Shown in pieces: positions 5,137 through 63,900 of a stretch of DNA of 64,000 nucleotides. The notes beneath the pieces are model-generated. The model worked only from the letters and a program-made list of their open reading frames with translations, ran no database searches and had not been told where the DNA came from. Source of the DNA: Treponema sp. (GTDB lineage Bacteria; Spirochaetota; Spirochaetia; Treponematales; Treponemataceae); contig JAGBGX010000016.1 in assembly GCA_017935745.1 (NCBI GenBank), positions 831 through 64,830 on the forward strand. The letters run 5' to 3'. Positions within the stretch are counted from its first letter, which is position 1; every line of letters starts with the position of its first letter. The translations under genes and the position numbers were made by a program.

Positions 5137-6123
5137 TCAGTCAACATCGAGATCTTTCAAATCAACAGGATCACTCATTGATGTAATCATCCAACCAAGC
5201 CTTTTTGAAGAAGGAACTGATAGAGACCATCTTCTTTGCACCATGATAGTGTTACAGTCGTACCTGTTTGCATTTTCAAGCCACTTTTTGTATTCGCCTA
5301 AAGTGCCGTCCATAAGACCAATTGTATCAAATATTTTATTATCACTTTTATCTATATAACTATAATAAAGATCGCCTCCAATCCACTGTGTATATGAACG
5401 CCAGTGATCAGGATCTCCTACACAAACAGCAGCACCGTCACAGTTTTCCGCCTTCTTGGCTCCCTGAGGAAAGGCGAACTGTATATCAGGATCTTTAAAG
5501 TGAATAAAAATCACAGGTTTTTCTTCCGAATTGCCTTCACTATCCGTAAAGTCACCATTTTTTTCTGGAGAATACATTGTAACCACAGGCTTAAAATCGC
5601 TCCTGCTGGCTTTGATTCTTCCAAGGCCGCCAACTGCTGTAACGGTAACATGATCAGTGACAATATTCTTTCTCCAGTCAAGAGCACTATGATCAGAAGG
5701 ATCAAAGTCTACATCAATTGTGTATGTTTTTCCCGGCTCAACAAGCGGATACACAAGACCGTCCATATCTTCCATATCAACAGGACTTGCTTCCGGCGTA
5801 ATAGTGCCATCAGATTCTGCCGGATTACACCAAATATTGATATGCCCCACGCCGCCTAATTTCTCGATGCTGTCAGGAACTCTTATGTTAAAGTGAATGC
5901 CGTCACTTTCCGCCCATGCAGTCACTGCCTTGCGGCCGTCAGATGAAAGCAGCTCGCCTGAAACTGCCCCTTCCGGCTGAAAACCATTTGCACTGGAATT
6001 TCCTGAAGCTTCAGTATTTGAACCAAAACTGCCTGAGCCTGAATCCGAGCCGTCCGAGCAGGAAACAAACACCGCCGCTGCCATAATCAGGGCCGAAACA
6101 AATGAGAGCGCGCTTTTTTTCAT
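5137..6123 (-). CDS. Spirochaetal lipoprotein of unknown function
   Basis: MKKSALSFVSALIMAAAVFVS-C lipobox followed by a Ser/Gly-rich tether. Confidence 0.85.
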   Translation of the reverse strand: MKKSALSFVSALIMAAAVFVSCSDGSDSGSGSFGSNTEASGNSSANGFQPEGAVSGELLSSDGRKAVTAWAESDGIHFNIRVPDSIEKLGGVGHINIWCNPAESDGTITPEASPVDMEDMDGLVYPLVEPGKTYTIDVDFDPSDHSALDWRKNIVTDHVTVTAVGGLGRIKASRSDFKPVVTMYSPEKNGDFTDSEGNSEEKPVIFIHFKDPDIQFAFPQGAKKAENCDGAAVCVGDPDHWRSYTQWIGGDLYYSYIDKSDNKIFDTIGLMDGTLGEYKKWLENANRYDCNTIMVQRRWSLSVPSSKRLGWMITSMSDPVDLKDLDVD

Positions 6124-6155
6124 AAAAAGCCTCCGTAGAATGAAATTTCACTTCC

Positions 6156-6182
6156 ATTCTACCCCCCCCCGATTTTTGTCAA
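6156..6182 (-). promoter_or_regulatory. Promoter with G9 in the -35/-10 spacer
   Basis: TTGACA-AAAATC-G9-TAGAAT (spacer 15), 33 nt upstream of the lipoprotein ATG. Confidence 0.75.
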
Positions 6183-6232
6183 GCCCCCTGCGTCAGTTTC
6201 CTGTCCTTTACTGTGCAACAGGCCTGGAGGCT

Positions 6233-7039
6233 TTATAACGGGAACGGCTTCTTTCTGAGGATTTCAAGGACGCCTTTGTCTGCTCCAAACGGAACAATGC
6301 TTGGCTGCTCATACACCGGGCTTATGACGATGCCAAGGTCAAGGCAGTGAATCAAAAATTCCCGATACCGCTCCTGCGGAACTTTCGGATGCAGGTACGG
6401 CCCCGTGCGCTCCCAGTACGGCACAACAGCCTTGTCGTATATGAACCAGTCTTTTTCCTGCCGCTCCTGAATTGCTGCAATAAGGTTGTACAGCGAGCGG
6501 GCAACGGCAGCTTCAACAGGAGACGGAAGCTTTATGTTTCTTTTAAAAGCGCCGGGATTTTCATGCGCAAGCTCATCCTTCACTGCAAGAATAAAAATTC
6601 CGCTTGTCCACGGCAGCGGCGGCTCAAGCATAATGCAGTCAATGCTGTCAAAGTCAACCTGGGCTGCCCATGGCTTCCAAAACAGCGTGCTGTGCGGACT
6701 TATGGACAGAGCGCAGGAAAGGCAGTCCTGCCTGTGCGAAAACAGAAAGACACAGCGGTGCGCGCCGAAAAACAAGCTGCTGTTAAACAGACTGTTTACT
6801 GCCTTTTCCAGACGGCCGGAAAAACAGGTTTTAAAGCTTCCCGTTGCGCCGCGGTCAAGCGCATTTTTCAGCATAGTGAAGGCAGAACTTCCGCCCCAGC
6901 CTAAAATGGCCCGCCCGTTTTCCTGATACAAGTCAGTCAGCCGCCGCCCCTTCTGTGTATACAAAAACGGCCCGCGCGCACGCTTTACATTTCCGTAGCG
7001 GAGAAAAACAGCTTCCGCTAAAAAATCAGTTTCATTCAT
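6233..7039 (-). CDS. Hypothetical protein, degenerate PLP-aminotransferase-like
   Basis: RARGPFLYTQKGRRLTDLY resembles class-III aminotransferase N-termini; protein is short (268 aa). Confidence 0.6.
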   Translation of the reverse strand: MNETDFLAEAVFLRYGNVKRARGPFLYTQKGRRLTDLYQENGRAILGWGGSSAFTMLKNALDRGATGSFKTCFSGRLEKAVNSLFNSSLFFGAHRCVFLFSHRQDCLSCALSISPHSTLFWKPWAAQVDFDSIDCIMLEPPLPWTSGIFILAVKDELAHENPGAFKRNIKLPSPVEAAVARSLYNLIAAIQERQEKDWFIYDKAVVPYWERTGPYLHPKVPQERYREFLIHCLDLGIVISPVYEQPSIVPFGADKGVLEILRKKPFPL

Positions 7040-7072
7040 TTCAGCTGATTATACAGGAAAAAGCACGCAATG

Positions 7073-8470
7073 TCATTTGCCGACACAAAAACGGCTGAAA
7101 ATAGTTTCAAGCACATCGTCAGGAGAAACTTCGCCGGTAACTTCCCCGAGGCTTGCAAGCGCGTCCTCCAGATCCTGAACAACGGCATCAAGCCCGTAGC
7201 TGGCAGTGCGGGAAATTTCCAGGGCGTGAGTTATGCGCTCCAAGGCTTCTTCAACTGAGTTTTTCTGGCGTTCTGAACCAAGGCCGGCCTGTTCCCGCTC
7301 CGTGAATTCCGTGCCGAGAATCAGTTTTTTTATCTTCAGAATCAGGCTTTCAATTCCTGCTCCGCTTTTTGCTGAGACGGCAGCAGTCTCGCGCCACGCC
7401 TTCTTCATCTCAGTTACATTTGAAATTTCAGCCTTGTCACATTTGTTCAGAACAAGTATGAGCGGAACTGCCGGATGCGACTCCATGAAGCTGATGTCAT
7501 CGGCTGAAATTCCGGCGGAAGCGTCAACAAGATAGAGAATGACATCCGCGCCCGCGCTCAAGTCCTTTGCAAGCTCCACGCCTTTCGCTTCTACCGCATC
7601 GTCAGTGCTGCGAATTCCGGCAGTGTCAAAAAGCCGCACTGGAATTCCTGAAAAGTCCGCCCAGCTTTCAAGCCAGTCGCGTGTTGTTCCTTCAGTGCTG
7701 CTTACAATCGCCCGCTCTTCCTTTAAAAGCGAATTGAACAGGCTCGATTTTCCGGCGTTCGTTTTTCCGCACAGCACAACTTTTGCGCCGTCCTGATATA
7801 TTTTTTCAGCTCTCCACGAGGAAGCAAGATCCGAAAGCTGTTTCTGCGCCTGCTCCAGAAAAGACGGATCAAACGAATCTGAAACAGTTTCTTCATCCTC
7901 AGGATATTCAATTTCAACTTCAATGGCGCTCAGCGTGTCAAGAATCAGCTTCTTGACTGAATCAATCTGATTGAAAAGAGAACCGCACAGACGGCCGGCC
8001 GCACGGCTTCTGGAGCTGTCCGTCTTGCTGTCGATAATTTCCTTTACAGCCTCAGCTCTGGTCAAGTCAGTTTTTCCGTTGACATACGCCCTGAAAGTGA
8101 ATTCGCCGCGCTCAGCCTTTCTAAAGCCGTTTTCAAGCAGAAGTGAAAAAACTGCTGTGACAACGCTTATTCCGCCGTGACAAAAAATTTCAACCATGTC
8201 TTCGCCGGTAAACGATCTGGGGCTTCTGTAGACCGCTGCCATCACTTCGTCAATTCTGCGTTCTTTTTCAGGAAGAGCCGGATTTACAATCCAGCCGTGA
8301 ACAAGCGAATTTCCCGGCGCGCGCATGACAGCTTCCGCACGTGAAAAAATCCTGCTGAAAAGAGTGATGCTGTTCTTTCCGCTCGCACGGACAATTCCAA
8401 TCGCGCCAGGAGCCAAGGCTGTCGCAATGGCAGCAATCGGCTCGTCAGGAACATACCTGGGCCTATTCAT
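7073..8470 (-). CDS. mnmE: tRNA modification GTPase MnmE/TrmE
   Basis: EPIAAIAT..G.GAIGIVRASG, SFTGEDMVEIFCHGG, GKTNAGKSS, GTTRD, DTAG, NKCD, C-terminal FSRFCVGK. Confidence 0.98.
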   Translation of the reverse strand: MNRPRYVPDEPIAAIATALAPGAIGIVRASGKNSITLFSRIFSRAEAVMRAPGNSLVHGWIVNPALPEKERRIDEVMAAVYRSPRSFTGEDMVEIFCHGGISVVTAVFSLLLENGFRKAERGEFTFRAYVNGKTDLTRAEAVKEIIDSKTDSSRSRAAGRLCGSLFNQIDSVKKLILDTLSAIEVEIEYPEDEETVSDSFDPSFLEQAQKQLSDLASSWRAEKIYQDGAKVVLCGKTNAGKSSLFNSLLKEERAIVSSTEGTTRDWLESWADFSGIPVRLFDTAGIRSTDDAVEAKGVELAKDLSAGADVILYLVDASAGISADDISFMESHPAVPLILVLNKCDKAEISNVTEMKKAWRETAAVSAKSGAGIESLILKIKKLILGTEFTEREQAGLGSERQKNSVEEALERITHALEISRTASYGLDAVVQDLEDALASLGEVTGEVSPDDVLETIFSRFCVGK

Positions 8471-10916
8471 GGCGGCCTGCGGAAAAAGGCCTGATGCGCA
8501 GAAGATTCCGCGACGGCACCGCTCTGACTTCATAGTCAGCATCCTGCTCAAGAACAGAATGCCATATAGAAATCATTTCCTTTGAGCGCAGCTCTTCTTC
8601 CTCTGCATTTTCCGGCGCGGGCTGCTTTTCCTTTTCACCTGAACTGAAAGCCGGGAGGCGCTTCTGCAAGTCGCACTCGTTTTTGTGCCACGGTGAAATT
8701 TCATTGTCCTGCGGATCCGGGCTGATATCCTCGTAATATCCGCCTGAATTGTTCCAGTACATATAGCCGCGGTCAAGTCCGTCCCGCACACCGAACACTT
8801 CGCGCAGAACATACTTCTTGTCGTAATACGCTCTGTCGTAACGGACTCCCATATAAAACGCCTGAATCCACGGACGCACGACAATCCTGTTTCTGGCGAT
8901 GACCGTATTCCTGTACGAGCCGTAAAAATAAATTCGGTACGGCCTCTCTTCGCGCGGAGCATAGTCAAGAAAACTCTGCTCAAAATGAGACGGATAGAAC
9001 ATCGGGCAGATGACATCAACATATTCACTCATCAGCTCAACGTCCTGCCCGGTCCGTGTTCCGCTGCGGTACCATCCGTTTGCACCGTAAATATCAATGC
9101 CGATCGGCGCATTTATATTTTTTCTGGCATAAGACAGAAATGAAACAAGAGCGCTTTCCTTGTCCATGCCTTTGTCCTTCCAGCGGTAGGAAGCTGAGCC
9201 GAGGTTTGTACCGTCAGTAGGAAACCGTATATAGTCAAACTGAATTTCATCAAAGCCGCGCTCAATCAGCTCCTTTGCAATTTCAACATTGTATTCCCAT
9301 ACTTCCTCGCTGTACGGATCAACCCAGTTTTCATCATAATACACAGTCCTGGTGCCTGTGACAGATCCCGCCTCGTTCTTGACTTCCTCTGTTCCGCGGA
9401 TTCCGACCCACGGCGCATTTGTCCGCGAATTCCAGACCGCATATTTTCCGCCGCTGTATGAAGCAAGGTTTCTGTCCTTAAAGACGACAATGCGGGCAAT
9501 CAGGTACGTTCCGTCTTTTTTAAATTCGCTGACAACCTGCTCCACATCTATTTTATACTGGGTGACTTTTCCCTTTTGCCTGAGCATGGAATTTTCAGGC
9601 TCAAAGCGCAAAAGGCCGTAGTCGTCCTTCATATCGATGACAACCGCATTAAGCTTGTTGTCCGAAATAATATTCCGGTACTTGCTGATTCCGCTGCTGT
9701 TTCTAAGCTGATATACAGACGCATAGACAGCCTTCCGCTTGTCCGCCTTTTCGCCCCACGGAGTCAGAATCACATCGGGATTCAAGAGGAACAGCTCCTT
9801 CAGCTCAAGGGCTGAGTCAAAGCCGGAAAACCGTCCAGGAACATACGCAGCATTTACGATTGAGCGCGCCGCATTCAGATGACTCTTCCACGAGTCAAAT
9901 CCCTTCAGCCTCTGCACAGTTCCGTCCGCAAGAGAATATGAAGCAAGCGAGCCGACTGTTGAAAACACAATGTCAGAGCCTGCCTGGCAAAGCCCGTCAA
10001 TCGTGCCGCACGGATCCGCGCCCTGATATATTTTTTCGCCGCGCTTTGTCTTCCAGTTGAACCGGTAGATGTTCGGAAGAAATGACTGGGAAAGATACAT
10101 TTCAGCATACACAGTTCCATCGGAACGCCTGCACAGAACAGGAAGAATGTCTGCAATCTCATCAATCTGCGTAAGGCTTTCCATCGCCGAAAAACCTGCG
10201 CTCACATATATCCAGGCAGGACGGCTTGCATCAGCCCGGCAATAGCTGAAGCCGCGGATTGGATGCGACATAAAGACAACAGTTTCGCTCCCGGCAATTC
10301 CGCCGTCTTTTCCGTAGACTGGCATCTTGGAAACTGCAACAGCCTTCATTCCCGGAGTGCCGTCTCCCGCAGAGCCGAGCGAAGCCCATGATACGCCGCC
10401 GTTCCGTGTTATAAACACTTCATCCTTTGTGGCAGTGACAAGAACATCAGGATCAAACGGATCTGCGCAGATATCCTTGAGGAGAGATGTTTTTTCAATA
10501 AGCGATTTTTTCTGCCCGTCATACTGCTTTACAATAAGCGACGGAAGCCCGGTGTTGCGGTACGTGAATGTCTTTAAATCCGAAGATGAAACGATTCCCT
10601 TTTCAGTGAGGAAAAACCACTGTGCGGAAGTTTTTAAAATGCGCTCTACTTTTCCTTCCGTCCACACAGGATCTGCCATTCCGCTCGGCATAATCCTGAA
10701 AAGTCCCGCGTCCGTTCCAATTAAAAACGGCTCATCCGTTTCCGCTGATTTTTTTTCAGCCTGAATATCAGGAAGCTGATACAGGGGCTTTGTCTGGGCA
10801 TATAAAAAATGCAGGGAGCACAGCGCCAGCGCCAGTCCGCACCTGAAAAATCCTGCGCCTCTTACACCGAACCTCAAGCGGCTTGAAATGCACAATTTTA
10901 AAAAGATAGTTCGCAT
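8463..10916 (-). CDS. Secreted putative glycoside hydrolase (DUF4015-like TIM barrel with N-terminal propeller-like region)
   Basis: NAVVIDMKDDYG, IARIVVFKD, WVDPY, GFDEIQFDYIRFP, IGIDIYG, DVICPMFYPSH, RPWIQAF. Confidence 0.8.
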   Translation of the reverse strand: MRTIFLKLCISSRLRFGVRGAGFFRCGLALALCSLHFLYAQTKPLYQLPDIQAEKKSAETDEPFLIGTDAGLFRIMPSGMADPVWTEGKVERILKTSAQWFFLTEKGIVSSSDLKTFTYRNTGLPSLIVKQYDGQKKSLIEKTSLLKDICADPFDPDVLVTATKDEVFITRNGGVSWASLGSAGDGTPGMKAVAVSKMPVYGKDGGIAGSETVVFMSHPIRGFSYCRADASRPAWIYVSAGFSAMESLTQIDEIADILPVLCRRSDGTVYAEMYLSQSFLPNIYRFNWKTKRGEKIYQGADPCGTIDGLCQAGSDIVFSTVGSLASYSLADGTVQRLKGFDSWKSHLNAARSIVNAAYVPGRFSGFDSALELKELFLLNPDVILTPWGEKADKRKAVYASVYQLRNSSGISKYRNIISDNKLNAVVIDMKDDYGLLRFEPENSMLRQKGKVTQYKIDVEQVVSEFKKDGTYLIARIVVFKDRNLASYSGGKYAVWNSRTNAPWVGIRGTEEVKNEAGSVTGTRTVYYDENWVDPYSEEVWEYNVEIAKELIERGFDEIQFDYIRFPTDGTNLGSASYRWKDKGMDKESALVSFLSYARKNINAPIGIDIYGANGWYRSGTRTGQDVELMSEYVDVICPMFYPSHFEQSFLDYAPREERPYRIYFYGSYRNTVIARNRIVVRPWIQAFYMGVRYDRAYYDKKYVLREVFGVRDGLDRGYMYWNNSGGYYEDISPDPQDNEISPWHKNECDLQKRLPAFSSGEKEKQPAPENAEEEELRSKEMISIWHSVLEQDADYEVRAVPSRNLLRIRPFSAGRHE

Positions 10917-11023
10917 GAACTTTTTATCGGCATTTTAAAACAGAATTTTACTTTTTATTCGTGCGGAGGATTTTATACCTTCGGGGCTGCAGGCAGTACC
11001 CCGATGCTTGCACCGGGCACCGT

Positions 11024-12088
11024 TCATTGCAAAACAAGATCGCCTTCCTTTATCCAGCCGAGCTTCCTCAGTCCCGTGCAGAATATCCACGACAAAATTC
11101 CCGGAAGAACGAAGCAGACAAGGACAAGTCCAGTCCAGTCAGACAGCGAAGGAGAAACGGCAAGCGCGCCATGGGAAACAGCAACGCTGCTCGGCTCAAA
11201 CCATCCTGTGATAACACCAATCTGGCCGACAAGCCCGCACGTTCCCATTCCGCTTGAAACAGCAGCGCCGTTCATCTGCATTTTAAATATGCATGTTGAA
11301 ACCGGGCCTGTAATTGCAGAGACTGCAACAGGCGGAATCCATATCCGCGGATTCTTTATTATGTTCGGCATCTGAAGCATCGAAGTTCCAAGTCCCTGGG
11401 ACAAAAGGCCGCTCCATCTGTTTTCCCTGAAGCTCATGACGGCAAACCCGACCATCTGGGCGCAGCAGCCTGCAACCGCGGCTCCTCCTGCAAGGCCGGT
11501 AAGACCGAGCGCAGCGCAGATTGCGGCAGAACTGACTGGAAGCGTCAAAAGAATTCCGACAATGACTGAAATCAGAATTCCCATAAGGAACGGACGCAGC
11601 GTTGTAGCCCACACAATCAGGCTGCCGAATGCAGAGGCCGCCGCCCCGATATGCCTTGCAAGAAGCACTGTAAACAGAACGCCTGCAAGAATAGTAACAA
11701 GCGGAGTTACAATAATATCGACTTTTGTCTTCTTGCTGACAAGCGAACCGCACTCGCAGGAAAGAATCGAAATAACAAGAACCGCAAGCGGTCCTCCCGC
11801 CCCGCCCGTACTGTTTGCAGCCGCGCCAACCGCAGCAAGAGTGAACAGCACAAGCGAAGAAGCTCCCATCACATAGCCGATTCCGACAGCCATTGCCGCT
11901 CCCACTACATGAACTTCCGAAGCAAAATTGCCCGCCTCCACAAGAAACGAAAAGACAGGATTTTCACCAAGCCGAAGAAGCTGCTGTCCGAGAGTCTTTA
12001 TAATGGTTCCAATCAAGAGCGATGAAAACAACCCCTGAGCCATTCCGCTCATTGCATCAATGCAATACCGCTTTACATACTTATTCAT
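11024..12088 (-). CDS. PTS EIIC-like membrane protein (PfoR/PTS_EIIC_2 family)
   Basis: DAMSGMAQGLFSSLLIGTII, LPVSSAAI, GTSMLQMPNI, SSGMGTCGLVG. Confidence 0.88.
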   Translation of the reverse strand: MNKYVKRYCIDAMSGMAQGLFSSLLIGTIIKTLGQQLLRLGENPVFSFLVEAGNFASEVHVVGAAMAVGIGYVMGASSLVLFTLAAVGAAANSTGGAGGPLAVLVISILSCECGSLVSKKTKVDIIVTPLVTILAGVLFTVLLARHIGAAASAFGSLIVWATTLRPFLMGILISVIVGILLTLPVSSAAICAALGLTGLAGGAAVAGCCAQMVGFAVMSFRENRWSGLLSQGLGTSMLQMPNIIKNPRIWIPPVAVSAITGPVSTCIFKMQMNGAAVSSGMGTCGLVGQIGVITGWFEPSSVAVSHGALAVSPSLSDWTGLVLVCFVLPGILSWIFCTGLRKLGWIKEGDLVLQ

Positions 12089-12247
12089 GATTCCTCCACA
12101 AAAAAATTTGCAATGCAAAATTTCAGAGACAGTCTTTTTGTATTGATGAAGTGATAGGAGCGCTCGTAGGCCCGTTAGACAAGAGTTTTGCCGACAGTCA
12201 TCGAAAACAGAATTTTCAGTGAAATAATTATATCACAAATAAAAAAT

Positions 12248-23599: not shown

Positions 23600-24683
23600 C
23601 TAGAATGAATAGGTATATGTCAGCGGAAAGGAAATGAATGTGTCTCCGTCAACCGTTTCATAATTTACGCCTGCCTCAAAAGAATGGTTTCCGTACGCAT
23701 AGCCGATATTCGGATTCACGCCGATAACAGGCTTTTCTCCATCGGAAGAATTGTCAACAAGAAGGATTCCCGTGACATTTGCCGTGAACGACTCTGTAAA
23801 ATCATAGGCAGCCGTGCAAGCCACATACAAGTCATAGTCTGAATCCTTGTCATCCAAGTTCGCAAGAATTTCCGCAGCCACGCCAAATGCGCCAGCTGAA
23901 TACTCGGCCGCAGCACTCAAAAGATTTTCTCCGAACACACCGAATTCCTCTGAAATGCTCAGGTCATCAAATCCGGCAGCCTTTTCCTTGCTGTACGAGT
24001 ACCCCCCCCCGGATAACAAGCTCCTGCTCTGCAAGCGGCGCAACCTGCGCAAAAATGCCGAACGCCCTCTGGTCGCTGTCAGCAGCATCCTGAACAGAAG
24101 CCCCCGCAGAAAACAGCTCGCCCCATGCATAGCTGATTCCAAAGCCAACGTTGAACTTCATGTCAGAATCATCTTCATTTTTTCCGCTGAAGAAATTGAC
24201 ATCGTCTTCCCCGCCAAACGGAGCTGTTGCAGAAACGCTCAGTCCGTCTATCGGCCGGAAAATAACTGTAAATCCGTCCGAGCCGAAATTTCCCGTGCTC
24301 AGATTGTCATCATAAATCGGAAGATACGAACCGTCTGAATAAATGTCCTCATGAAATCCAAGCGACAGCTTTTCAACCGGGCGGAATTCAACAAACCAGT
24401 CAATGTCATCCCACGCCACGCCGAAATTCCTGCCGTTCCAGTCATCCAGTATAAACGTGACATCAATTCCGGCGTCAAGCCGTTCCGATGTAAACAGAAC
24501 GACCGCATTTTCTTCAATTCCGGCAAAATCTGTTTCCGTGCCGTCCGCACCGTAGGAACCGCCTTTTTTTATTGACGCGACATCAGACGAAAGCTCGCTT
24601 GTGAATTCAACCGTCTGGGCAGACAGACTGAAGCCGGCAAAAAGCAGCGGAACAAGAACCGCGGCAGCCTTATTGATTTTCAT
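23600..24683 (-). pseudogene. Outer-membrane beta-barrel protein frameshifted at a G9 tract (possible phase-OFF allele)
   Basis: Signal-peptide ORF 24683-23967 and barrel C-terminus ending TYTYSF join as ...VIRGGYSYSK... if G9 (C24002-24010) is G8; product 360 aa. Confidence 0.85.
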
Positions 24684-34282: not shown

Positions 34283-35209
34283 TTACATCGTACGGTCATC
34301 AATACTTTGCGTAGCGGCAATGCTGTTGATGATAACCTTGAATTCGTCTGCTCTACGTTCGTAACGTAAAGATTGATTGTTAACTTTATCATTAGAGACC
34401 ATATCATTTAGCCCATATAAACTTTCGTTATACAAGGCTAACTCGATGACTTTCTTTAACACTGCCGAATCAGTGTTGGTCATACCAGCAATGTTGTTTA
34501 ACGATTTGTTCATAATCGCTTTGGCTTTGTCCACGGTTAGTTCATTGTAACTAAGGTTAGCCATAGCCAACTCGGAGACATAAGTATTTTCGGGTAAGTC
34601 CTTCATGTCTCTATTGGCTTGCAACGCTAGAGAACCCTTACCCATTCCCAGCGATTCATTGTAGGCATTATGTGCCAGTTTGTAATAACTGGCTACATAG
34701 GCGTGATAATCTTCGGTAGTATAATTACTTAAAAGAACGTTTTCCATTTTATCGAAAAGGGGGGCAAAGGCGTAGTAATTGGCGTTAATATTATCGGCAA
34801 TGTTTTGTTCGCTGTTGTATTTTTGTAACACCGTGTCAATCATTTTGTAATAATTATTGTCGGTTTGCCCAGTAACCGCCGTTTGTAATTCAGTAACTTT
34901 TTGGCGCATAAATTTTTGAGCCATGGTGTAGGCATCGGTAAATTTTTGATTCTTAACCGCTTGTTCTTCGTAATACCACTCAGTATCTTCGGCAACAAAT
35001 TTTTGACCACCCAATTCTTCGTCGATGTAGTATGCGGGGTATTGATCGGGGTTAACGGGGTTGGTCGGTTCGGTGGGGTCAATGCCGGGGTTAACGGGAT
35101 TGGTGGGTTCTTCGTAGTAATTGTCGTTACTCGTGCTGCTTCCGACGGAACACCCTGTGAGAACCACCGCTGTTGTAATAACAGCTGAAATTTTTACAAT
35201 TTTTTTCAT
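34283..35209 (-). CDS. AT-rich lipoprotein with Pro/Asn tether
   Basis: MKKIVKISAVITTAVVLTG-C; EPTNPVNP twice; GGAGG RBS at 35215-35219. Confidence 0.85.
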   Translation of the reverse strand: MKKIVKISAVITTAVVLTGCSVGSSTSNDNYYEEPTNPVNPGIDPTEPTNPVNPDQYPAYYIDEELGGQKFVAEDTEWYYEEQAVKNQKFTDAYTMAQKFMRQKVTELQTAVTGQTDNNYYKMIDTVLQKYNSEQNIADNINANYYAFAPLFDKMENVLLSNYTTEDYHAYVASYYKLAHNAYNESLGMGKGSLALQANRDMKDLPENTYVSELAMANLSYNELTVDKAKAIMNKSLNNIAGMTNTDSAVLKKVIELALYNESLYGLNDMVSNDKVNNQSLRYERRADEFKVIINSIAATQSIDDRTM

Positions 35210-35225: not shown

Positions 35226-35275
35226 GAAAAAGTTGAAACCAGATTACCCCCCCCCGCCATTTTGTCAAGCATTTT
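35226..35275 (-). promoter_or_regulatory. Poly-G promoter block, copy A
   Basis: TTGACA-AAATGGC-G9-TAATCT (spacer 16); 36 bp (35240-35275) identical to 38441-38476. Confidence 0.8.
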
Positions 35276-35330: not shown

Positions 35331-36224
35331 ATGGAAACAAAAGCATCTGCCGCTCCCTGCCCGCTCACGCTCGAAGAAAAATGGGAGCGGGCAACACTCG
35401 CGGACAACTTCATCTTCTATAAGATCATGTCGGAAAATCCCGGCGTCTGCAAGGAGCTTCTGGAGATCCTGCTTGGAATCGAAATTGACCGCCTCGAAAA
35501 ACCTATCGCAGAAAAGAATGCCAAGGTTGACTACGACTCGAAAGGTATCCGCTTCGATGTGTACACCAAGGGCGGAGGACGCTGCTTCGATATCGAAATG
35601 CAGACAGCCGGCCGCCAGAACCTCGCAAAGCGGGCGCGCTACTACCAGGGGCTGATGGACGTGGACACGCTGAAGGCAGGCGAAGCGTACAGCGCGCTCA
35701 AGGACAGCTACGTCATCTTCCTGTGCATGGGCGACTTTATCGGGAGCGGGCTTCCCGTCAGCACGTTCGAGAACATCTGCCGCGAAGACAAAGGCATCGC
35801 GCTCAACGACCGCGCCTACAAAGTCTTTTTCAACGCGGAGAAATATGATACAATGGCAGACAGGGAACAGAAATCATTCTTTAAATTTCTGCGTTGCGGC
35901 GCGTCCGAATCGGCGTTCACAAAAAAGCTTGATGCCATGGTGGAGCGGGCAAAACACAACGCACAGTGGAGGCATCAGTTTATGACATGGAGCATAGCAA
36001 TGCAAGATGCGGTAGATGCCGCAGTTGAAGAGGCGGTGGAGATTGCCGTTGAGCAGGAGCGCGCGCGGAGCCTGCAAGAGGGCGCGCAGCAGAAAGCATT
36101 CGAGACCGCGCGGAAAATGCTGGAAACAAACATCGGCACCATGGAACAGATTGCCGATATTGCCGGACTTCCCCTTGAGCAGGTGGAGCAGCTCCAGCAG
36201 GAACTGTGCGCTGCGGAAAAATAA
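35331..36224 (+). CDS. Rpn-family recombination-promoting nuclease / putative transposase (PD-(D/E)XK type)
   Basis: DNFIFYKIM, GIRFDVYT...FDIEMQ, KRARYYQGLMD, SYVIFLC, variable helical C-terminal tail. Confidence 0.92.
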   Translation: METKASAAPCPLTLEEKWERATLADNFIFYKIMSENPGVCKELLEILLGIEIDRLEKPIAEKNAKVDYDSKGIRFDVYTKGGGRCFDIEMQTAGRQNLAKRARYYQGLMDVDTLKAGEAYSALKDSYVIFLCMGDFIGSGLPVSTFENICREDKGIALNDRAYKVFFNAEKYDTMADREQKSFFKFLRCGASESAFTKKLDAMVERAKHNAQWRHQFMTWSIAMQDAVDAAVEEAVEIAVEQERARSLQEGAQQKAFETARKMLETNIGTMEQIADIAGLPLEQVEQLQQELCAAEK

Positions 36225-37878: not shown

Positions 37879-38406
37879 TTATCTGGTGAACTTCAAGTCA
37901 AAGGTTAATAAACGATAGTCCGTGCTGTTCTTCTTAACAGGAACAGTGCCTTTCATAGTAAAAGTGCTGCTTTCTGGATTTGTCATTTCAATTTTATTTG
38001 AAGCCGCAACCGTACCCCAGTAATAGGCATCTTTATACTTTATTATATCACTACTAAATGTTATTGATTCCTTTCCCATCGGAATATTTGAATCACCACT
38101 CCACGAAGCTTCAAATTTATATTTCTTCTCATTTGTCTGATTATAAGCTGAAACTTCCCAAGAAATCTGGCCTGCATCCACAGCACACAAAACAGTCCTC
38201 GCATCTTCTGCTGCTATGATTTTTCTTGTGTTCTTGTTCTCCTCAGCTTCAATATAGCTGACATCTCCTTCCGCTGTAAGCCTATAACTATAACTCCTGT
38301 CTGTGGTAGTCGTATCGACATCACCATCGATTTCCACTTCCTTCTGGCAAGATGCAAGCATCATCACCGACACAATGCCCGCGAGGGCAACCATTGCTTT
38401 TTTCAT
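37879..38406 (-). CDS. AT-rich lipoprotein
   Basis: MKKAMVALAGIVSVMMLAS-C lipobox. Confidence 0.85.
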   Translation of the reverse strand: MKKAMVALAGIVSVMMLASCQKEVEIDGDVDTTTTDRSYSYRLTAEGDVSYIEAEENKNTRKIIAAEDARTVLCAVDAGQISWEVSAYNQTNEKKYKFEASWSGDSNIPMGKESITFSSDIIKYKDAYYWGTVAASNKIEMTNPESSTFTMKGTVPVKKNSTDYRLLTFDLKFTR

Positions 38407-38426: not shown

Positions 38427-38476
38427 TAAAAATCTGAAATCAGATTACCCCCCCCCGCCATTTTGTCAAGCATTTT
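38427..38476 (-). promoter_or_regulatory. Poly-G promoter block, copy B
   Basis: TTGACA-AAATGGC-G9-TAATCT; C9 at 38448-38456; direct repeat of copy A. Confidence 0.8.
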
Positions 38477-56686: not shown

Positions 56687-56707
56687 AGGCCCGTGCGGCG
56701 CGCGCCC

Positions 56708-56761: not shown

Positions 56762-56827
56762 CAGCCGGAAAGCATGGATACTTTCTGCGATCGCATTTCC
56801 AAAAATCCGCATATCAAGGAGGACAGC

Positions 56828-57517: not shown

Positions 57518-57710
57518 GGACGCGGGGCTTTCTATTTCGGCGGCGTTCAACATCTTTGCGAAGAAAGTTGTCCGCGAGCACAGGATTCCGTTCGACATCA
57601 CTAACGAAGATCCGTTCTACAGCGCGGAAAACCAGGAGAGGCTGGCGCAACGAATCGCAGACATGGAGCATGGCGTGAACTGCTCGGAACACGACCTGAT
57701 AGAAGCATGA
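57516..57710 (+). pseudogene. 5'-truncated RelB/DinJ-family antitoxin
   Basis: GLSISAAFNIFAKKVVREHRIPFDI..DPFYSAENQERL; no start codon, N-terminal ribbon-helix-helix strand missing. Confidence 0.75.
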
Positions 57711-57733
57711 AAAAAATCTGGCATGATGCGGCA
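57707..57733 (+). pseudogene. Stub of a Txe/YoeB toxin gene
   Basis: ATGA overlap with the relB remnant; MKKIWHDAA resembles YoeB N-termini, then homology stops. Confidence 0.5.
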
Positions 57734-57746
57734 CACACTACTACAG

Positions 57747-58472
57747 CTAGCGGTTTTCTCCGGGCGGTTCTGCTGATTCTGCCTGCGGCGGAGCGTTCTC
57801 TTCTTCGGGAAATTCCGTCCGGGCGGCGGATTCCGTTCCTGCATTCTTCCGGCGGAAAATCAGCCTGAAAATCGCGGGAAGGTTCAGCTTGACCCGTATG
57901 CCGTACTCAAGCCCCTGCCGCATGATTTCGCTGCTGAACGCGTTGCCGCCGTTGCTCAGGGGATGGCGGTAGCCGATGAACGCGTCCGCCATGACGTAGC
58001 CGAAGAAATTCTGCTTCCAGCCGACTTCGCCAAACAGCGAGATGAGCGTGTCCTTCCGCTCGCTGTCCGAAAGCCCGTCCCCCTTGTACATCAGGAAGTC
58101 CGTTCCGCACCCCGCGCCCACGTACAGCCAGTCAAGCCCGCGCCCGAACGGATAGCACAGCGCCTCCAGCTGGATGCCGACGGTCGTAACGGTCATGCCA
58201 GTGTCCGCAGGCATCATGGTCATGTGGGAAAACCCGCCCTTGACGGCAAGACGGCTGAGCAGCGCCGCCTCGTAGGAAACCCCAAGCCCCCAGCCGTTGT
58301 TCTTCAGCCCGGTTCCAAGATAGCCCAGGTCGAACGAAAGGATGCGGCGGTTGGCAGATTGTTCCGCGCCGGATGCCGACGGAGCCAGGCAGAAAAGCAG
58401 CGCCGCGATGACGGCTGAGAAAAACCGATGCGCATCTTTCCGCGGCGCCCTGCCCGGCAAAAGGAATTCCAT
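57747..58472 (-). CDS. Probable outer-membrane beta-barrel protein (DUF3575-like)
   Basis: Signal peptide; amphipathic strands SFDLGYL, GLGVSYE, GEVGWKQ, DAFIGY. Confidence 0.6.
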   Translation of the reverse strand: MEFLLPGRAPRKDAHRFFSAVIAALLFCLAPSASGAEQSANRRILSFDLGYLGTGLKNNGWGLGVSYEAALLSRLAVKGGFSHMTMMPADTGMTVTTVGIQLEALCYPFGRGLDWLYVGAGCGTDFLMYKGDGLSDSERKDTLISLFGEVGWKQNFFGYVMADAFIGYRHPLSNGGNAFSSEIMRQGLEYGIRVKLNLPAIFRLIFRRKNAGTESAARTEFPEEENAPPQAESAEPPGENR

Positions 58473-58558
58473 GCGCCTTTTGTATCAGATTTTGCGGAAA
58501 AAGGAAAGCCTAGGACGCGCGACTGGAACAGAATGTATTTTTTTGCTACAGTAAGAAA

Positions 58559-58756
58559 ATGTATGTGCCGACAGAACGGGAAAAGGCAGTTTTGGAATTT
58601 CTCAAGGAAAAGGGGCGTCCTGTTCATGAAACGGAAATTGCCGCCGCTTTGAAAACGGTTTCCGCTGCGCTCGACGGCTGCCGTGCAAAAAACTTTGCCG
58701 AAAAAGATGAGCGCGGATTTTTTCATCTGACGCAATCCGGCAGAAACGCCTTTTAG
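58559..58756 (+). CDS. Small winged-helix protein
   Basis: EREKAVLEFLKE...ETEIAAALK...GFFHLTQSG pattern. Confidence 0.5.
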   Translation: MYVPTEREKAVLEFLKEKGRPVHETEIAAALKTVSAALDGCRAKNFAEKDERGFFHLTQSGRNAF

Positions 58757-58765
58757 CCCGACACG

Positions 58766-59884
58766 CTAATACAGCGCGTTGTACTGCCCCGCAATCCGCT
58801 CCCACGTGTAGAGCCGCTTCCCGGCTTCCGCCATGGCCGCAGCGGTTTCAGGGAAACGTCCGCTTTCTTCTATTATAATACGCGCAATGTCGTCCGCCGT
58901 TTTCCAGTAGAGCGCCTTATCCTCGGTGGTGGCGCGGTTGTACACGCAGTCGAACGCAAGCACCGGCAGCGCAAGGTTCATCGCCTCCACAAGGCTGGGA
59001 TTCGTTCCGCCCGCAGAATGTCCGTGAACGTACAAGGCCGCGTTCGAGCGGAGCCAGTTCACGGTATGCGGTTCGTAGACCGGCTCAAGCAGATGAAGAT
59101 TCCCGAACGCAGAGAACGCTTCCTTCAGCTTTCTTCCGTAGGCTGAATTCTGCCAGTTGCCGACGGCGACAAGCTGCCTCCCGGGAAGACGGGAGAACGC
59201 CTCCAGAATCACGTGGATGTTGTTCTCAGGCTCAATGCGGCAGACGGTAACGGCATACGGCTCTTTGCAGAACGGATACGATTCATACAGGGAACCGTCG
59301 CAGACTTTTGCGGCATGGTCGCCGCCGTAGGCAATCAGCTCGACACGCTTTTTCGCCGCCGCCCGGTACTCCGACGCAACGTAGTCCGTGATTCCGCGGT
59401 TGTCGCCGATGATAACGTCGGAACAGCGCACCGCCATCCGCTCGCTGAATTTCAAAAGCCGCCGTGCAAACCAGCTCCATTTATCGCGCTTCCATTCAAG
59501 CCCGTCGATGTTCGTGATGATTTTTCCCTTGAACCGCCGCCTGATGTACGGCAGGAACAGGCAGCCAGACACGCCCAGAATCAGCATGACGTCCGCGCCG
59601 AGCGACCGCCTCATTCCGTCAAAATCGTAGAGGATGCTTTCCGCGCCGTTCGCATCGCGGTCAAGGTAGACAAGATGCGCGCCCTTGTACGACTCAAGGT
59701 GCGTCTCATATTTTTTCGCCGGGCAGAAAACCGTGTACGCAACGCCCGGCGGCGTCCAGTCCAGCAAGTTATCCACAAGCGACTCGAATCCGCCGTAGCA
59801 GGCCGGAACGCCCGCCGTGCCGATGACGGAAACGCGGATTTTTGGAGAAGAACTGACGGCATTACAAGAAAACGAATTGCTCAT
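58766..59884 (-). CDS. GT4 glycosyltransferase with DUF1972 domain
   Basis: IIGT-like VIGTAGVPACYGGFES, TNIDGLEWKRDKW, RIEPENN, HGHSAGGTNPSLVEAM. Confidence 0.92.
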   Translation of the reverse strand: MSNSFSCNAVSSSPKIRVSVIGTAGVPACYGGFESLVDNLLDWTPPGVAYTVFCPAKKYETHLESYKGAHLVYLDRDANGAESILYDFDGMRRSLGADVMLILGVSGCLFLPYIRRRFKGKIITNIDGLEWKRDKWSWFARRLLKFSERMAVRCSDVIIGDNRGITDYVASEYRAAAKKRVELIAYGGDHAAKVCDGSLYESYPFCKEPYAVTVCRIEPENNIHVILEAFSRLPGRQLVAVGNWQNSAYGRKLKEAFSAFGNLHLLEPVYEPHTVNWLRSNAALYVHGHSAGGTNPSLVEAMNLALPVLAFDCVYNRATTEDKALYWKTADDIARIIIEESGRFPETAAAMAEAGKRLYTWERIAGQYNALY

Positions 59885-59950
59885 TTGAACGCTCCTCGCG
59901 CAAAAGTATTTTTATATGGAAAATTCCGATGAATTCGTGTATAGTTATAT

Positions 59951-60226
59951 ATGAAAGCGGAGGCAAGAATGCAAGGTACATTCACAGTCAGAAAAGACGA
60001 ACTAACAATAGACTTTCTGAAAAGTCTGAAGAAAATGTTCTCTGGAAATGTCCTGGATATTACAGTCAGCGACAATTTTGACGGCTCATCGGAATCGCAA
60101 ACCAAAACAGACATGGACGAAACGGAATATCTTTTGAGCAACCCGGCGAATAAGAAATTTCTGCTTGACGGAATTGCAGAAATCGAAAAAGGCAACGTCA
60201 AAAAAATCGAACTGGAAGCGTTATGA
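59951..60226 (+). CDS. Antitoxin partner of YoeB (YefM-like C-terminus, atypical N-terminus)
   Basis: DETEYLLSNPANKKFLLDGI; overlaps the toxin start. Confidence 0.75.
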   Translation: MKAEARMQGTFTVRKDELTIDFLKSLKKMFSGNVLDITVSDNFDGSSESQTKTDMDETEYLLSNPANKKFLLDGIAEIEKGNVKKIELEAL

Positions 60227-60486
60227 TTACAATAATCGCTTTTTACAAAACTGCCTACGAAGACTACAACGTCTGGGAAGAAACTGACAAGAAAATATTC
60301 AAACGCATAAAAGAACTCATCAAAGACATTTCCCGCAATCCGTTTGAAGGAATCGGAAAACCGGAGCCGCTCAAACACGAACTTTCCGGCTACTGGTCCA
60401 GAAGAATAAATGACGAACATAGAATTGTTTACAAGATTACCGACAATATGCTGTACATTCTTTCTTGCAGGGAGCATTACAAATAA
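60223..60486 (+). CDS. yoeB: Txe/YoeB-family addiction-module toxin
   Basis: AYEDYNVW..TDKKIFKRIKELIKDISRNPFEGIGKPEPLKHELSGYWSRRINDEHRIVY...SCREHY. Confidence 0.95.
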   Translation: MITIIAFYKTAYEDYNVWEETDKKIFKRIKELIKDISRNPFEGIGKPEPLKHELSGYWSRRINDEHRIVYKITDNMLYILSCREHYK

Positions 60487-60495
60487 GGTTGCTTT

Positions 60496-60852
60496 ATGGA
60501 TTACGCAGCTTTTACACTTTCTGAAATTGAAGACGCAATTCTTAACCTCAACAACAAAGGGAAAGCGATTCCATGTGAACTTTCCGCGCTGATTCCGACA
60601 AAACTTGACGAGCATATACGCTTTCTTGAAGACAAACTCAATAATATGCAGAATTCCGAAACGCAGAACACCGACTGCCAGAAGAAACTCGTCCACGAAC
60701 TTGAAACCTGCAAAAGCTGGAAAGCAAAACGCGAATACTACGGCTTTGATGATCCCGAAAGCAAGCACAAATATGAAAAAGCAAACGGACTTCCTGCGGA
60801 AGTATTCGAAATTATAGAGAAAGAAATTTATTTTTGCAGAAACGGGATGTAG
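60496..60852 (+). CDS. Hypothetical protein
   Basis: 118-aa ORF 9 nt after yoeB with an AAGG RBS. Confidence 0.6.
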   Translation: MDYAAFTLSEIEDAILNLNNKGKAIPCELSALIPTKLDEHIRFLEDKLNNMQNSETQNTDCQKKLVHELETCKSWKAKREYYGFDDPESKHKYEKANGLPAEVFEIIEKEIYFCRNGM

Positions 60853-60854
60853 AA

Positions 60855-61305
60855 TCATTCTTTGCTCCGAATTTTTATTACCCGGCAGGGAACGCCCGCA
60901 CAAACCGAATTATCTGGCAAATCTTTATTCACTACGCTGCCCCCCAATGCACACAAAGTCCCCAATCGTTACAGGCTTGCAGACAAGCGTGTTCATGCCG
61001 ATAAAACAGTTGCTCCCGATGTGTACTTCACCGACATCATAGGAAAGTGTTGCGGGATTATAAAAATGAGTAAGAATTTTTGTTCCGCTGGTAATAGTTG
61101 TGCCGTCCCCTACAAAAATATGATCCGGATACAAATCATCAAACAGGACAGAATGCCCGATAAAGCAGTTTTTCCCGATGTGAATGCCTGTAAGGCGCAG
61201 CAGCTTTACTCGCAGTGCGCTTGTCAAAAAGAACGACTTATAGCACCATGCAAAAATAAATCGGCGCAGGAATCGGAAAAGGTTATATTGTCTTGTTGCT
61301 GTCAT
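60855..61305 (-). pseudogene. Hexapeptide-repeat acyltransferase frameshifted at a G6 tract
   Basis: IGDFVCI-G6-C then, in another frame, GSVVNKDLPDNSVCAGVPCRVIKIRSKE*; G8 (or G5) restores the frame. Confidence 0.85.
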
Positions 61306-61421
61306 ACAGCCTCCTCACAACATTTTTCACAGCACAAAAGTACTGCCGGACATTCTTATTTTTGAAAAGCGGTTTTCTTATGAAAGCTCAGCACTCAATT
61401 TTCTGACAGCAGAAAACCAAA

Positions 61422-61450
61422 TTGACACATACTATTATATGTGTTACTTT
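61422..61450 (+). promoter_or_regulatory. hicAB promoter with inverted-repeat operator
   Basis: TTGACA-N17-TACTTT; ACACATA-N6-TATGTGT spans the spacer. Confidence 0.7.
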
Positions 61451-61467
61451 ATATGCAGGAGGGATGA

Positions 61468-61665
61468 GTGAAAAGCTATTCTTCACGGGAAGTCATAAAA
61501 CTGCTCAAAGAAGACGGCTGGTACGAAGTTGACTGCACAGGCTCCCACCACCAGTTCAAGCACCCGTCAAAACCCGGAAGAACAACTGTCAAGCATCCTG
61601 ACAAGGATATTCCTCCGAAAACGCTTCGCAGCATTGAGCGGCAGAGCGGACTGAAATTTGAATGA
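61468..61665 (+). CDS. hicA: HicA-family toxin
   Basis: SSREVIKLLKEDGW...GSHHQFKHP...TTVKHPDKDIPPKTLRSI. Confidence 0.95.
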   Translation: MKSYSSREVIKLLKEDGWYEVDCTGSHHQFKHPSKPGRTTVKHPDKDIPPKTLRSIERQSGLKFE

Positions 61666-61674
61666 GGTGAAGCA

Positions 61675-62082
61675 ATGAACAGCGAGCGGATTTTTTATCC
61701 AGCGGTATTTACCTACGAAGCCGGAAAAGAAATTGCTGTTGAGTTTCCAGACCTTGGCTGCGCGACTTCCGGCGTGAACGAAGATGATGCCTTTCTTTCC
61801 GCAAGGGAGCTTTTGGGCTGTGTCATATTCGGCCTTGAGCAGGACGGAGAAGCAATTCCAAAGCCTTCCCGGCTTTCCGACATCAGGACTGAATCCAATG
61901 AGCGAGCAGTCCTTGTTGATGTGTATATGCCTGCCGTCCGGCTCGCGCACGAAAACAAGTCCGTAAGCCGGACAGTAACAATCCCCTCATGGCTCAATGC
62001 GCGCGCGCTGGCGGAAAACATCAACTTCAGCCAGGCTCTTCAAGAAATCCTCTGCCGCAAGCTTGGAGTTCTAACTGAATAA
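61675..62082 (+). CDS. hicB: HicB-family antitoxin
   Basis: YPAVF...VEFPDLGCATSG...IPKPS...VSRTVTIPSWL...NFSQALQE. Confidence 0.95.
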   Translation: MNSERIFYPAVFTYEAGKEIAVEFPDLGCATSGVNEDDAFLSARELLGCVIFGLEQDGEAIPKPSRLSDIRTESNERAVLVDVYMPAVRLAHENKSVSRTVTIPSWLNARALAENINFSQALQEILCRKLGVLTE

Positions 62083-62117
62083 TCAGAAACTGATTTTCAA
62101 AAATAAAAATGTCAAAG

Positions 62118-62158
62118 AACGCGCCCTGTATTTCAGCAAAGCTGAAACCTAGGGTGTT
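62118..62158. terminator. Hairpin between hicB and the convergent glycosyltransferase
   Basis: AACGCGCCCT..TTTCAGC-AAA-GCTGAAA..AGGGTGTT. Confidence 0.55.
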
Positions 62159-62269
62159 ATTATCAATCGGCAAAGCAAGCAAAAAAAACAACAATGCCAA
62201 TGTTCGAAAACCAGTTTTTTCCGTTCGGAAATTTCAGAATGGTTGTCCATGAGGCCAAAAATTGAAACT

Positions 62270-63367
62270 TCACCTTAATTCTCCAAATAAATCAAAAAAT
62301 CTTTTCTCATAGTGTTCCAATGTCAGGTACGAACAAAATGCATTCCTTGCCAGTTTTGAATAATCAGCAAGCAAATTCACATTATCTACAAAAAATTCTA
62401 TTGCAGTTACAAATGACATATCATCATTCGGCTTTATTGTTCTGGAAAAGGTTTCATCAAGAATTTCGACTGCACCTCCGTTGTCTGTGGTTATTACCGG
62501 ACGGGAAAACATCATTGCCTCAAGAACGGTAGTCGGGAAAGGGTCGGACATAAGGCTTGGAACAAGAACTACATTTGCGGATTTATACATTTCATCAATA
62601 TTCTGTGAAAAATCATGTACTGAAACTAGTCCTATCAAATTTTTCGATTTTACATCATCTTGCAAACGTGCATACAATTCAGGTTTAAATGGCGGCGCAC
62701 TTCCGAACAAATCGATATGAATTTTTCTTTTGTATTCTTCAGGCAATTTATGTAAGGCTGACAGCAAAAACCACTGCCCTTTCTGCGGCATAAAACGTCC
62801 CGGAAGAACAAAACGGATTTTTCCATCAGAATTGATTTTGTTTTCCAAAAAAACAGCAGCTATATCCGGGATTCCGTTATGAACAACTGGATACTTTCCA
62901 GAAAAAAACAAATTCTGTTTTACATGTTCTGAAACGCACACAACTTCATTCGCTCCTGTTTTAGCAAGAAAGGAAAAACCAAAATTCAAAAATGTATTTG
63001 AAATAATTTCATGCACATATAAAACACGTTTTCTTGAAAAATGTGCAAATAAAAGAAGCACTGTTGCCAATGTGTTGCAGAAACAGTAATCAAACTTCTT
63101 TCCTGAAAACAATCTTCTGCACTGAAAAATTTTAGACGGGAGCTTCACATAGTCAAGCAGCTTCAATTTAGAATGAACAATCGGAAGCTTCGCAAAAATT
63201 TTTATCTCTATTTTTGTAGAAATTGCTTTTATGTACTCAACAAGAACTCCATCTTTAGGAAGGAGGACAGTTATCTCATGCTTTGCATTCAGCATTTTGA
63301 GCATATACAGCATTATTTTGTCGGCACCATAAAGCTCAACAGACGGATGCACAAAAAGCAACTTCAT
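62270..63367 (-). CDS. GT4 (GT-B) glycosyltransferase
   Basis: HPSVELYGAD, YVHEI, VVHNGI, GRFMPQKGQ, PSLMSDPFPTTVLEAM. Confidence 0.92.
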   Translation of the reverse strand: MKLLFVHPSVELYGADKIMLYMLKMLNAKHEITVLLPKDGVLVEYIKAISTKIEIKIFAKLPIVHSKLKLLDYVKLPSKIFQCRRLFSGKKFDYCFCNTLATVLLLFAHFSRKRVLYVHEIISNTFLNFGFSFLAKTGANEVVCVSEHVKQNLFFSGKYPVVHNGIPDIAAVFLENKINSDGKIRFVLPGRFMPQKGQWFLLSALHKLPEEYKRKIHIDLFGSAPPFKPELYARLQDDVKSKNLIGLVSVHDFSQNIDEMYKSANVVLVPSLMSDPFPTTVLEAMMFSRPVITTDNGGAVEILDETFSRTIKPNDDMSFVTAIEFFVDNVNLLADYSKLARNAFCSYLTLEHYEKRFFDLFGELR

Positions 63368-63900
63368 TTAACAACGCTCCTTGATTTTTCTAGCCGGGAC
63401 ACCTGCATATACGCAATTCGGTTCAGTTGATTTTGTAACGACTGCACCGGCACCGATTACACAGTTATCAGCAATCTTTATATTTCCAATCACAATGGAA
63501 TGAACTCCCATATTCACATTATCACCTATTACAGGAACTCCAAAATTACCAGCACCAATCACCCCCCCCGAATTACAAGATTTTTACCAATCTCAGTCTT
63601 TCCATTTATTACAACCCCTGTACAATGATGAATTACAAAACCACCACCAATTCTTGTTCTTGAAGGAATATCACAACCATTCTTTAATGAGATATATCTG
63701 TATAAAAATCGCTCCATACAATAAATTGGAAACAATACTTTTTTCGTCCGAAGAAACTGACACAATCTAAAATGAAAAACTATTTTAAATTCACGTAAAG
63801 TTAAAAACAAAAAGAAAAAATTTATTTTCTCTCTACCAAGTTCTATTCTCCATGCTTCCTTATCACTATTTAATAAATCCAAAAATTCAAAAAACTTCAT
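63368..63900 (-). pseudogene. Serine-acetyltransferase-like (LbH) O-acetyltransferase frameshifted at a G8 tract
   Basis: IGGGFVIHHCTGVVINGKTEIGKNLVIR-G8-TGA; continuation VIGAGNFGVPVIGDNV...IGAGAVVTK...YAGVPAR is in another frame; G9 or G12 restores it. Confidence 0.88.

Follow-up and report, generated by a model that had tools for sequence, protein, structure and literature searches.

A probable genome-wide set of independently slipping poly-G tracts at surface-protein, glycan and restriction-modification genes of a rodent-gut Treponema

A 64,000-nucleotide stretch of the draft genome of an uncultured rodent-gut Treponema (hereafter the window; G000:C20:831-64830, where G000 is this genome and C-numbers are its contigs) carries six G runs which, as we suggest with considerable confidence, belong to a genome-wide contingency set, or phasome, of about 80 poly-G tracts that slip independently of each other. 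We propose that each tract gains or loses G residues on its own, by slipped-strand mispairing in replication. In the promoter class, in which the -35 and -10 boxes are separated by a spacer that the tract fills, tract length would set the spacing and hence the strength of transcription, and tracts of G8-G9, giving a 15-16-nt spacer, would represent a low setting relative to a 17-nt optimum. For tracts inside coding regions, one G more or less would shift the frame, truncating or restoring the protein. Such changes, if reversible, would make the population mixed in its surface make-up and may be of adaptive value against host immunoglobulin A or phage.

The assembly is a 2.64-Mb draft of 20 contigs with 48.4% G+C. 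In GroEL it shares 94% identity with uncultured Treponema metagenome-assembled genomes (MAGs) and 87% with Treponema zioleckii, the closest named relative. Near-identical DNA is carried by gut metagenomes, several of them labelled rat gut, and the term "commensal-type Treponema", used in a preliminary description of the window, is therefore correct.

Tracts of the window as a sample of the genome

A sequence scan of the window finds exactly six C runs of at least six letters on the + strand: C9 at 6162-6170, 24002-24010, 35247-35255 and 38448-38456, C6 at 60940-60945 and C8 at 63562-63569. G runs of such length on the same strand are represented by one G6. Every gene concerned is encoded on the - strand, where all six C runs read as G and stand in the context C-Gn-T at five sites and T-G6-C at one, exactly as the preliminary description had placed them. 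The core genes thrS, pheT, pflB and groEL of the window were checked and have unbroken frames, as had also been claimed.

Genome-wide, G/C runs of lengths 5 to 12 number 407, 21, 2, 35, 44, 2, 0 and 1. Five order-4 Markov genomes trained on this genome, taken as the null, give about 390, 27, 2 and 0.2 runs for lengths 5, 6, 7 and at least 8. Runs of up to seven letters thus fit the null, and the lone G6 run is within composition expectation, while 82 runs of at least eight letters stand against about 0.2 expected, an approximately 400-fold excess carried by lengths 8-9. The run-length distribution is bimodal, and A/T runs in the same genome fall monotonically with length. The window holds five tracts where 2.0 would be expected from the genome's own tract density (P = 0.05), so that it is a sample of a genome-wide property and is not special in itself; the earlier idea of a window-wide set gives way to one of 82 tracts in the genome, with a promoter design that extends through the family. 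Of the features by which contingency loci are recognised, four were found here, namely homopolymers of at least 7-8 letters in promoters or 5' coding regions, their over-representation relative to composition, an alteration of frame or promoter geometry by one unit more or less (in silico), and length polymorphism between strains.

The last of these was approached by a comparison of strains, as the preliminary description had proposed. All tract lengths in other samples (public sequencing runs, X-numbers) were read from assembled contigs; the strains compared are about 1% diverged, and ten tracts were checked. Nine of the ten differ in length among strains. In the window, the 6162 tract (9 here) has 8 letters in X10 and X17 and 9 in X11, the 24002 tract (9 here) has 8 in X10, and the 60940 tract (6 here) has 8 in X5. 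The 35247 tract (9 here) was read as 8 in X10, and the 38448 tract (9 here) as 8 in X5 and X10, these calls being weakened by short contigs of paralogous promoters that map to both places. Elsewhere, C13:83755 goes from 9 here to 8 in X10, C9:163509 from 9 to 8 in X11, C9:161301 from 8 to 9 in X10, X17, X19 and X28, and C9:156350 from 9 to 8 in X10, X13 and X17 and to 5 in X28; only C13:85495, with 8 letters here, is unchanged in X10. A 10-kb contig of X10 has 88 substitutions relative to this genome and only two insertions or deletions, both of them at tracts.

The strongest evidence of instability comes from X17, X19 and X20, three samples of one rat-gut study which share 30 of 30 single-nucleotide differences from this genome over 2.9 kb and so represent one strain. 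They differ only at the poly-C tract C9:156350 (L003:1351), with lengths of 8, 9 and 9. This tract lies at the 3' end of an HD-GYP-like gene, where its length alters only the C-terminal tail. At 24002-24010, samples X5, X11 and X4 have an interrupted 8-nt version (TCCCGCCC on the + strand), which indicates that tracts are gained or lost over short evolutionary distances; as predicted from its sequence, the interruption would lock the gene concerned, encoding an outer-membrane protein (OMP), in frame. X4 is an RNA run, and its contigs span this OMP gene.

It could be argued that the runs, and the frameshifts with them, are homopolymer miscalls of sequencing or assembly, given that this is a draft assembled from a metagenome and that some platforms are error-prone at homopolymers. 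However, independent short-read contigs of three samples of the source study, X1-X3, at 380-560x depth, reproduce every tract length, including C9 at 24002 (380-530x); strains from other studies carry the same tracts, with 8 and 9 resolved; and runs of up to seven letters fit expectation, those of 8-9 being found only at functional positions. Assembly error is thereby all but ruled out, and we give a technical origin of the tracts next to no probability. X1, X2 and X3 had also been considered as same-strain replicates in which tracts might differ, and were dropped from this use as uninformative: they show one length per tract, are identical at all tracts examined and have no differences over more than 30 kb, so they do not inform on switching.

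Tract instability does not come from a global loss of mismatch repair, an idea that was considered and ruled out since MutS and MutL are both intact in this genome; Campylobacter and Helicobacter differ in this respect.

Promoter spacers and coding frames

Three of the G9 runs of the window fill promoter spacers of lipoprotein genes, in agreement with the preliminary description; we read both the TTGACA and TAnnnT hexamers and the lipobox proteins behind them. Each G9 is wholly inside the interval between the hexamers, and about 30-35 nt 3' of each -10 box stand a ribosome-binding site (RBS) and a start codon, followed by a lipobox-Cys signal peptide. The promoter at 6156-6182 (- strand) consists of TTGACA (6182-6177), a 15-nt spacer of AAAATC and G9 (6170-6162), and TAGAAT (6161-6156). 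It precedes a gene at 5137-6123 (- strand, ATG at 6123) for a 328-aa lipoprotein (MKKSALSFVSALIMAAAVFVSC, lipobox end ...VFVSC, then SDGS), a paralogue of which has the same promoter at G000:C17:44154. At 35241-35268 (- strand), TTGACA (35268-35263) is followed by a 16-nt spacer of AAATGGC and G9 (35255-35247) and by TAATCT (35246-35241), upstream of a 308-aa lipoprotein gene at 34283-35209 (- strand, ATG at 35209; MKKIVKISAVITTAVVLTGC, lipobox end ...VLTGC, then SVGS). The third promoter, at 38442-38469 (- strand), is a near-identical copy of this block, with TTGACA (38469-38464), a 16-nt spacer including G9 (38456-38448) and TAATCT (38447-38442), and the same block occurs at G000:C9:217810, C9:222378 and C13:282302. 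Its gene, at 37879-38406 (- strand, ATG at 38406), encodes a 175-aa lipoprotein (MKKAMVALAGIVSVMMLASC, lipobox end ...MLASC, then QKE), one of at least four paralogues, every one with a poly-G promoter. No Pfam family was matched by the three lipoproteins of the window.

Sample X17 is without the 3.2 kb between these near-identical blocks (joint 35270->38484, with 13 other letters), a segment that holds a PD-(D/E)XK transposase-like (Rpn-type) gene at 35331-36224. This difference probably arose when the promoter copies recombined, or else by an insertion.

A scan of the whole genome for spacer-filling poly-G promoters, which had been suggested along with an enrichment test, found 21 tracts in TTGACA-N-Gn-TAnnnT spacers. 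Lipobox proteins follow 17 of them and other signal-peptide proteins 3; with lipobox-like proteins making up 7.4% of predicted genes, lipoprotein genes are enriched with an odds ratio of 58 (p = 1.5e-16). Promoters without poly-G, defined as TTGACA-Nx-TAnn[AT]T at most 120 nt from a start codon, peak at a 17-nt spacer with 41 cases, against 2, 8 and 7 at 15, 16 and 18 nt. The poly-G promoters have spacers of 15 nt (8 cases), 16 nt (9), 17 nt (2), 18 nt (1) and 19 nt (1), and since most stand at 15-16 nt, the addition of one or two G would bring the majority to the optimum of this genome. Among 121 sampled Treponemataceae genomes the pattern is present in 52, belonging to 12 of 24 genera, with zero matches to a reversed control pattern in the 121; this genome tops the scan with 20 matches. 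The poly-G promoter design is thus old and widespread in the family.

The coding tracts of the window affect one OMP and two glycan acetyltransferases. The outer-membrane beta-barrel-like gene at 23600-24683 (- strand; signal peptide, C-terminal ...TYTYSF) is broken at its internal G9 (24010-24002): the frame has 363 codons at G8 or G11 and falls into 241 + 185 open codons at G9. The predicted protein has a cleavable signal peptide and alternating-polarity segments, with a weak Porin_4 match, and five other species of the genus have unbroken homologues of 338-380 aa. A hexapeptide-repeat acetyltransferase gene at 63368-63900 (- strand) is broken at G8 (63569-63562), which gives 113 aa, while G9 lengthens the product to 177 aa; the post-tract piece matches Hexapep/Hexapep_2, and both pieces have hexapeptide repeats or their context. 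It adjoins, on the upstream side of the latter, a GT4 glycosyltransferase gene at 62270-63367 (GT4 match), which follows directly after it. The third run, at 60945-60940 in a hexapeptide-repeat acetyltransferase gene at 60925-61305 (- strand; Hexapep match, E = 3e-11), truncates the protein and does not split a fusion of two frames. With G6 the product has 126 aa, and with G5 or G8 it has 152-153 aa. Its division of one gene into open reading frames of 126 and 340 aa was considered and ruled out, as no tract length fuses them. This G6 is a contracted tract, given that X5 has two more C (C8) at the same site.

The glycan locus at 61300-64000, to which the GT4 gene and the acetyltransferase gene broken at G8 belong, is missing from X5, X10 and X17 and is a strain-specific glycan island.

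The earlier recognition of contingency tracts of a slipped-strand type at lipoprotein promoters, in an OMP gene and in two genes for glycan acetyltransferases is supported for this commensal-type Treponema. The accompanying statement that most of them are suboptimal or OFF is true of the window, with its spacers of 15-16 instead of 17 nt and its three broken or truncated frames, and does not extend to the coding tracts of the genome, about half of which are ON and half OFF in the assembly according to in silico frames at one G more or less.

Most non-promoter tracts lie inside coding regions, often directly 3' of the part for the signal peptide, or stand a few bases ahead of a start codon. Pfam assigns the tract-bearing genes to two SBP lipoproteins, GH5 and GH16 lipoproteins, a BNR/sialidase-like protein, an OMP_b-brl protein, a trypsin-like protein, a secreted ankyrin protein and a CAP-domain lipoprotein, and, on the side of glycan synthesis, to two Acyl_transf_3 proteins, several hexapeptide transferases, FdtA and a WecA-like transferase. 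By analogy, these functions match known phasomes, where surface proteins, glycan enzymes and restriction-modification (RM) systems are the usual targets. The switches had been said to act on surface genes only, and this does not hold for the genome as a whole: tracts are found also in a TetR gene, at the 3' ends of LysR and HD-GYP genes, in the 5' regions of uvrA and of a MIF-like gene, and in three RM or methylase genes. The last three (G000:C3:23768, C12:133905 and C12:137294) are an MmeI-like type IIL RM gene split at C8 just before its NPPF motif and two DPPY N6/N4 (N6_N4) DNA methylases split at G8 directly after DPPYG. Judged by their sequences, they are candidate phase-variable methylation systems, and the two small DPPY methylases may be phage-borne orphans.

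Four tracts stand 5-13 nt before start codons, at the expected Shine-Dalgarno place (G000:C1:13983, C4:47000, C9:258399 and C12:91399), where a change in length would be predicted to alter the spacing from RBS to start; the gene downstream of C4:47000 encodes a lipoprotein. In several multi-copy repeat families, at which the assembly is broken, a poly-G tract of each family's own stands beside a terminator-like hairpin, at the contig-end sites C6:3, C11:3, C14:79567, C15:92, C16:92; C1:406, C2:77689; C1:41723, C5:197651, C9:1052; and C2:186, C5:189/205, C16:319589 of G000. These families are candidates for mobile promoter cassettes or an insertion-sequence-like element.

The preliminary description had regarded the tracts as a coordinated system, and one may think of a trans-acting factor, either a regulator that binds G tracts or a phase-variable methylase (a phasevarion), which sets many genes together. 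The block TTGACAAAATGGC-Gn-TAATCT common to many lipoprotein genes would agree with it, as would the tracts in three methylase or RM genes and the CRP homologue of Treponema pallidum, which acts jointly with poly-G length (PMC7864442). But each locus changes in length independently from strain to strain and from sample to sample, the tracts have no linked regulator gene and no trans-acting element was found, and the six sites of the window share nothing beyond the tracts themselves. Tract changes that go locus by locus, with no cross-locus pattern, leave coordination unsupported, and we regard it as very improbable.

Flanking signature and the weight of alternatives

On the G strand the long tracts have a common context, (A)C-Gn-TA. 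T follows 73% of the G runs of at least eight letters and 10-12% of runs of 3-5 G, and C precedes 79% of the long runs and about 50% of the short ones. Counts of C-G8+-TA against a reversed control are 44:0 in this genome and 23:5, 28:2 and 21:1 in three species of the same genus (G082, G138 and G154), within which the number of G8 windows per genome ranges from 0-3 up to more than 80. The signature is present also at the 57 unique non-promoter tracts. Hidden -10 boxes behind the TA at such tracts were ruled out, as position +6 is not enriched in T, and so was selection for stop codons, as the commonest triplet that follows is TAC. We know of no description of a C-Gn-TA signature for the Campylobacter/Helicobacter phasome.

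G is on the sense strand at about 50 of about 55 tracts assignable to genes, including all 21 promoter tracts. A bias of replication strands was considered as a cause and ruled out: the G runs favour the G-rich replication strand 47 to 28, which is not above the general gene-strand bias (67%). The preference of G for the sense strand is greater than a bias of this kind can account for.

These properties invite the suggestion that the tracts are mutational hot spots of a context-dependent bias, with no selected switch, and that the broken genes are pseudogenes in the making. A signature shared with non-promoter tracts suggests a mutational origin, lengths are limited to 8-9, promoter spacers are almost never optimal, and some tracts are found in repeat elements, at gene 3' ends or in regulators. 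Against this, 21 tracts lie exactly between -35 and -10 with a 58-fold enrichment of lipoprotein genes, the promoter design is conserved in 12 genera, coding tracts cluster just past signal peptides, and the same loci are unbroken in sister strains. It makes a purely mutational explanation improbable in our view.

The flanking signature, the sense-strand G and the narrow band of lengths, almost exclusively 8 or 9, taken together would allow that some sequence-specific process seeds or maintains the tracts in this Treponema genus. The polymerase could slip in a context-dependent way, or an ACGT-like site could be nicked or modified. The approximately 20 lipoprotein promoters would then be built to be mostly OFF at mutational equilibrium, as a bet-hedging with rare ON states in a commensal. 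We consider this idea doubtful and mention it as a speculation; if it were true, passive slippage and selection would not be the whole story.

The reading of the tracts as a set of independently slipping contingency loci has also several points to its disadvantage. Nearly all promoter tracts are 1-2 nt, and in some strains 3 nt, under the optimum, so that either these promoters are usually at a low or off setting, or something is missing from the spacer model. Where tracts belong to regulators or repeat elements, or lie at the 3' end of a gene, a role as switches is not obvious, and X1-X3 show no tract difference. With MutS and MutL intact, switching rates may be modest. The link from tract length to expression output and the heterogeneity of lengths within a population are both predictions from sequence.

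Relation to known systems

The promoter-spacer arrangement was experimentally shown for tp0126 of T. pallidum and for porA of Neisseria meningitidis (PMC7864442). In the OmpW homologue tp0126, the -35 and -10 boxes are kept apart by the poly-G and work best at a total distance of 17 nt, and 13 of 17 (76%) further T. pallidum tracts vary in length (PMC7864442). The tp0126 and tprE/G/J/L loci are the closest parallel to the promoters described here, coming from the same family, with poly-G in the promoter of a gene whose product is exported or belongs to the outer membrane, typical lengths of 8-11 and many tracts that vary (PMC7864442); in tprL, unlike the promoters here, the tract overlaps the -10 region. 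In the present case the bearer is a gut commensal with about 20 such promoters, mostly of lipoprotein genes and with a shared block spread over a paralogue family, and their consensus lengths, known from sequence, place nearly all of them below the optimum. The N. meningitidis porA shares with them a spacer homopolymer which acts as a volume control of a surface porin through the distance from -35 to -10. It is, however, a single proteobacterial locus, whereas here the design is multiplied about 20-fold, on lipoproteins.

As a whole, the set resembles the phasomes of Campylobacter jejuni and Helicobacter, with tens of G8-G10 tracts, bimodal run lengths, mixed ON and OFF states, and acetyl- and glycosyltransferases, surface proteins and RM genes among the targets. 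Those genera are without MutS/MutL mismatch repair, whereas this genome has both proteins, and their tracts are mostly coding, whereas a quarter of those here are of the promoter-spacer type. The MmeI-like enzyme and the two DPPY methylases, interrupted at G8/C8 beside catalytic motifs, are reminiscent of phasevarions (Mod, Type I/IIL), with the difference that these methylases lie outside the window and are known from sequence. By these analogies, the mechanism is one already known from T. pallidum, porA and the C. jejuni phasome, here on a large scale in a non-pathogen.

G/C tracts of at least seven letters were counted as 100 in T. pallidum, 78 in T. pedis, 26 in T. denticola and 15 in T. 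ruminis, and it was pointed out in that study that T. ruminis, a gut commensal, had the fewest homopolymeric tracts (PMC8049484). The commensal studied here has 84. A 2025 review regarded the seeming confinement of multi-locus repeat phase variation to pathogens as an open question, maybe a matter of database bias (PMC11868660), and the finding has some comparative value in this respect. As the promoter-spacer design occurs in 12 of 24 genera, poly-G phase variation of the surface appears to be a general treponemal strategy and not one specific to syphilis. For the annotation of treponemal MAGs it means that apparent pseudogenes may be OFF phases, and cultivable or gut-model relatives of this organism could serve for the study of the T. 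pallidum mechanism.

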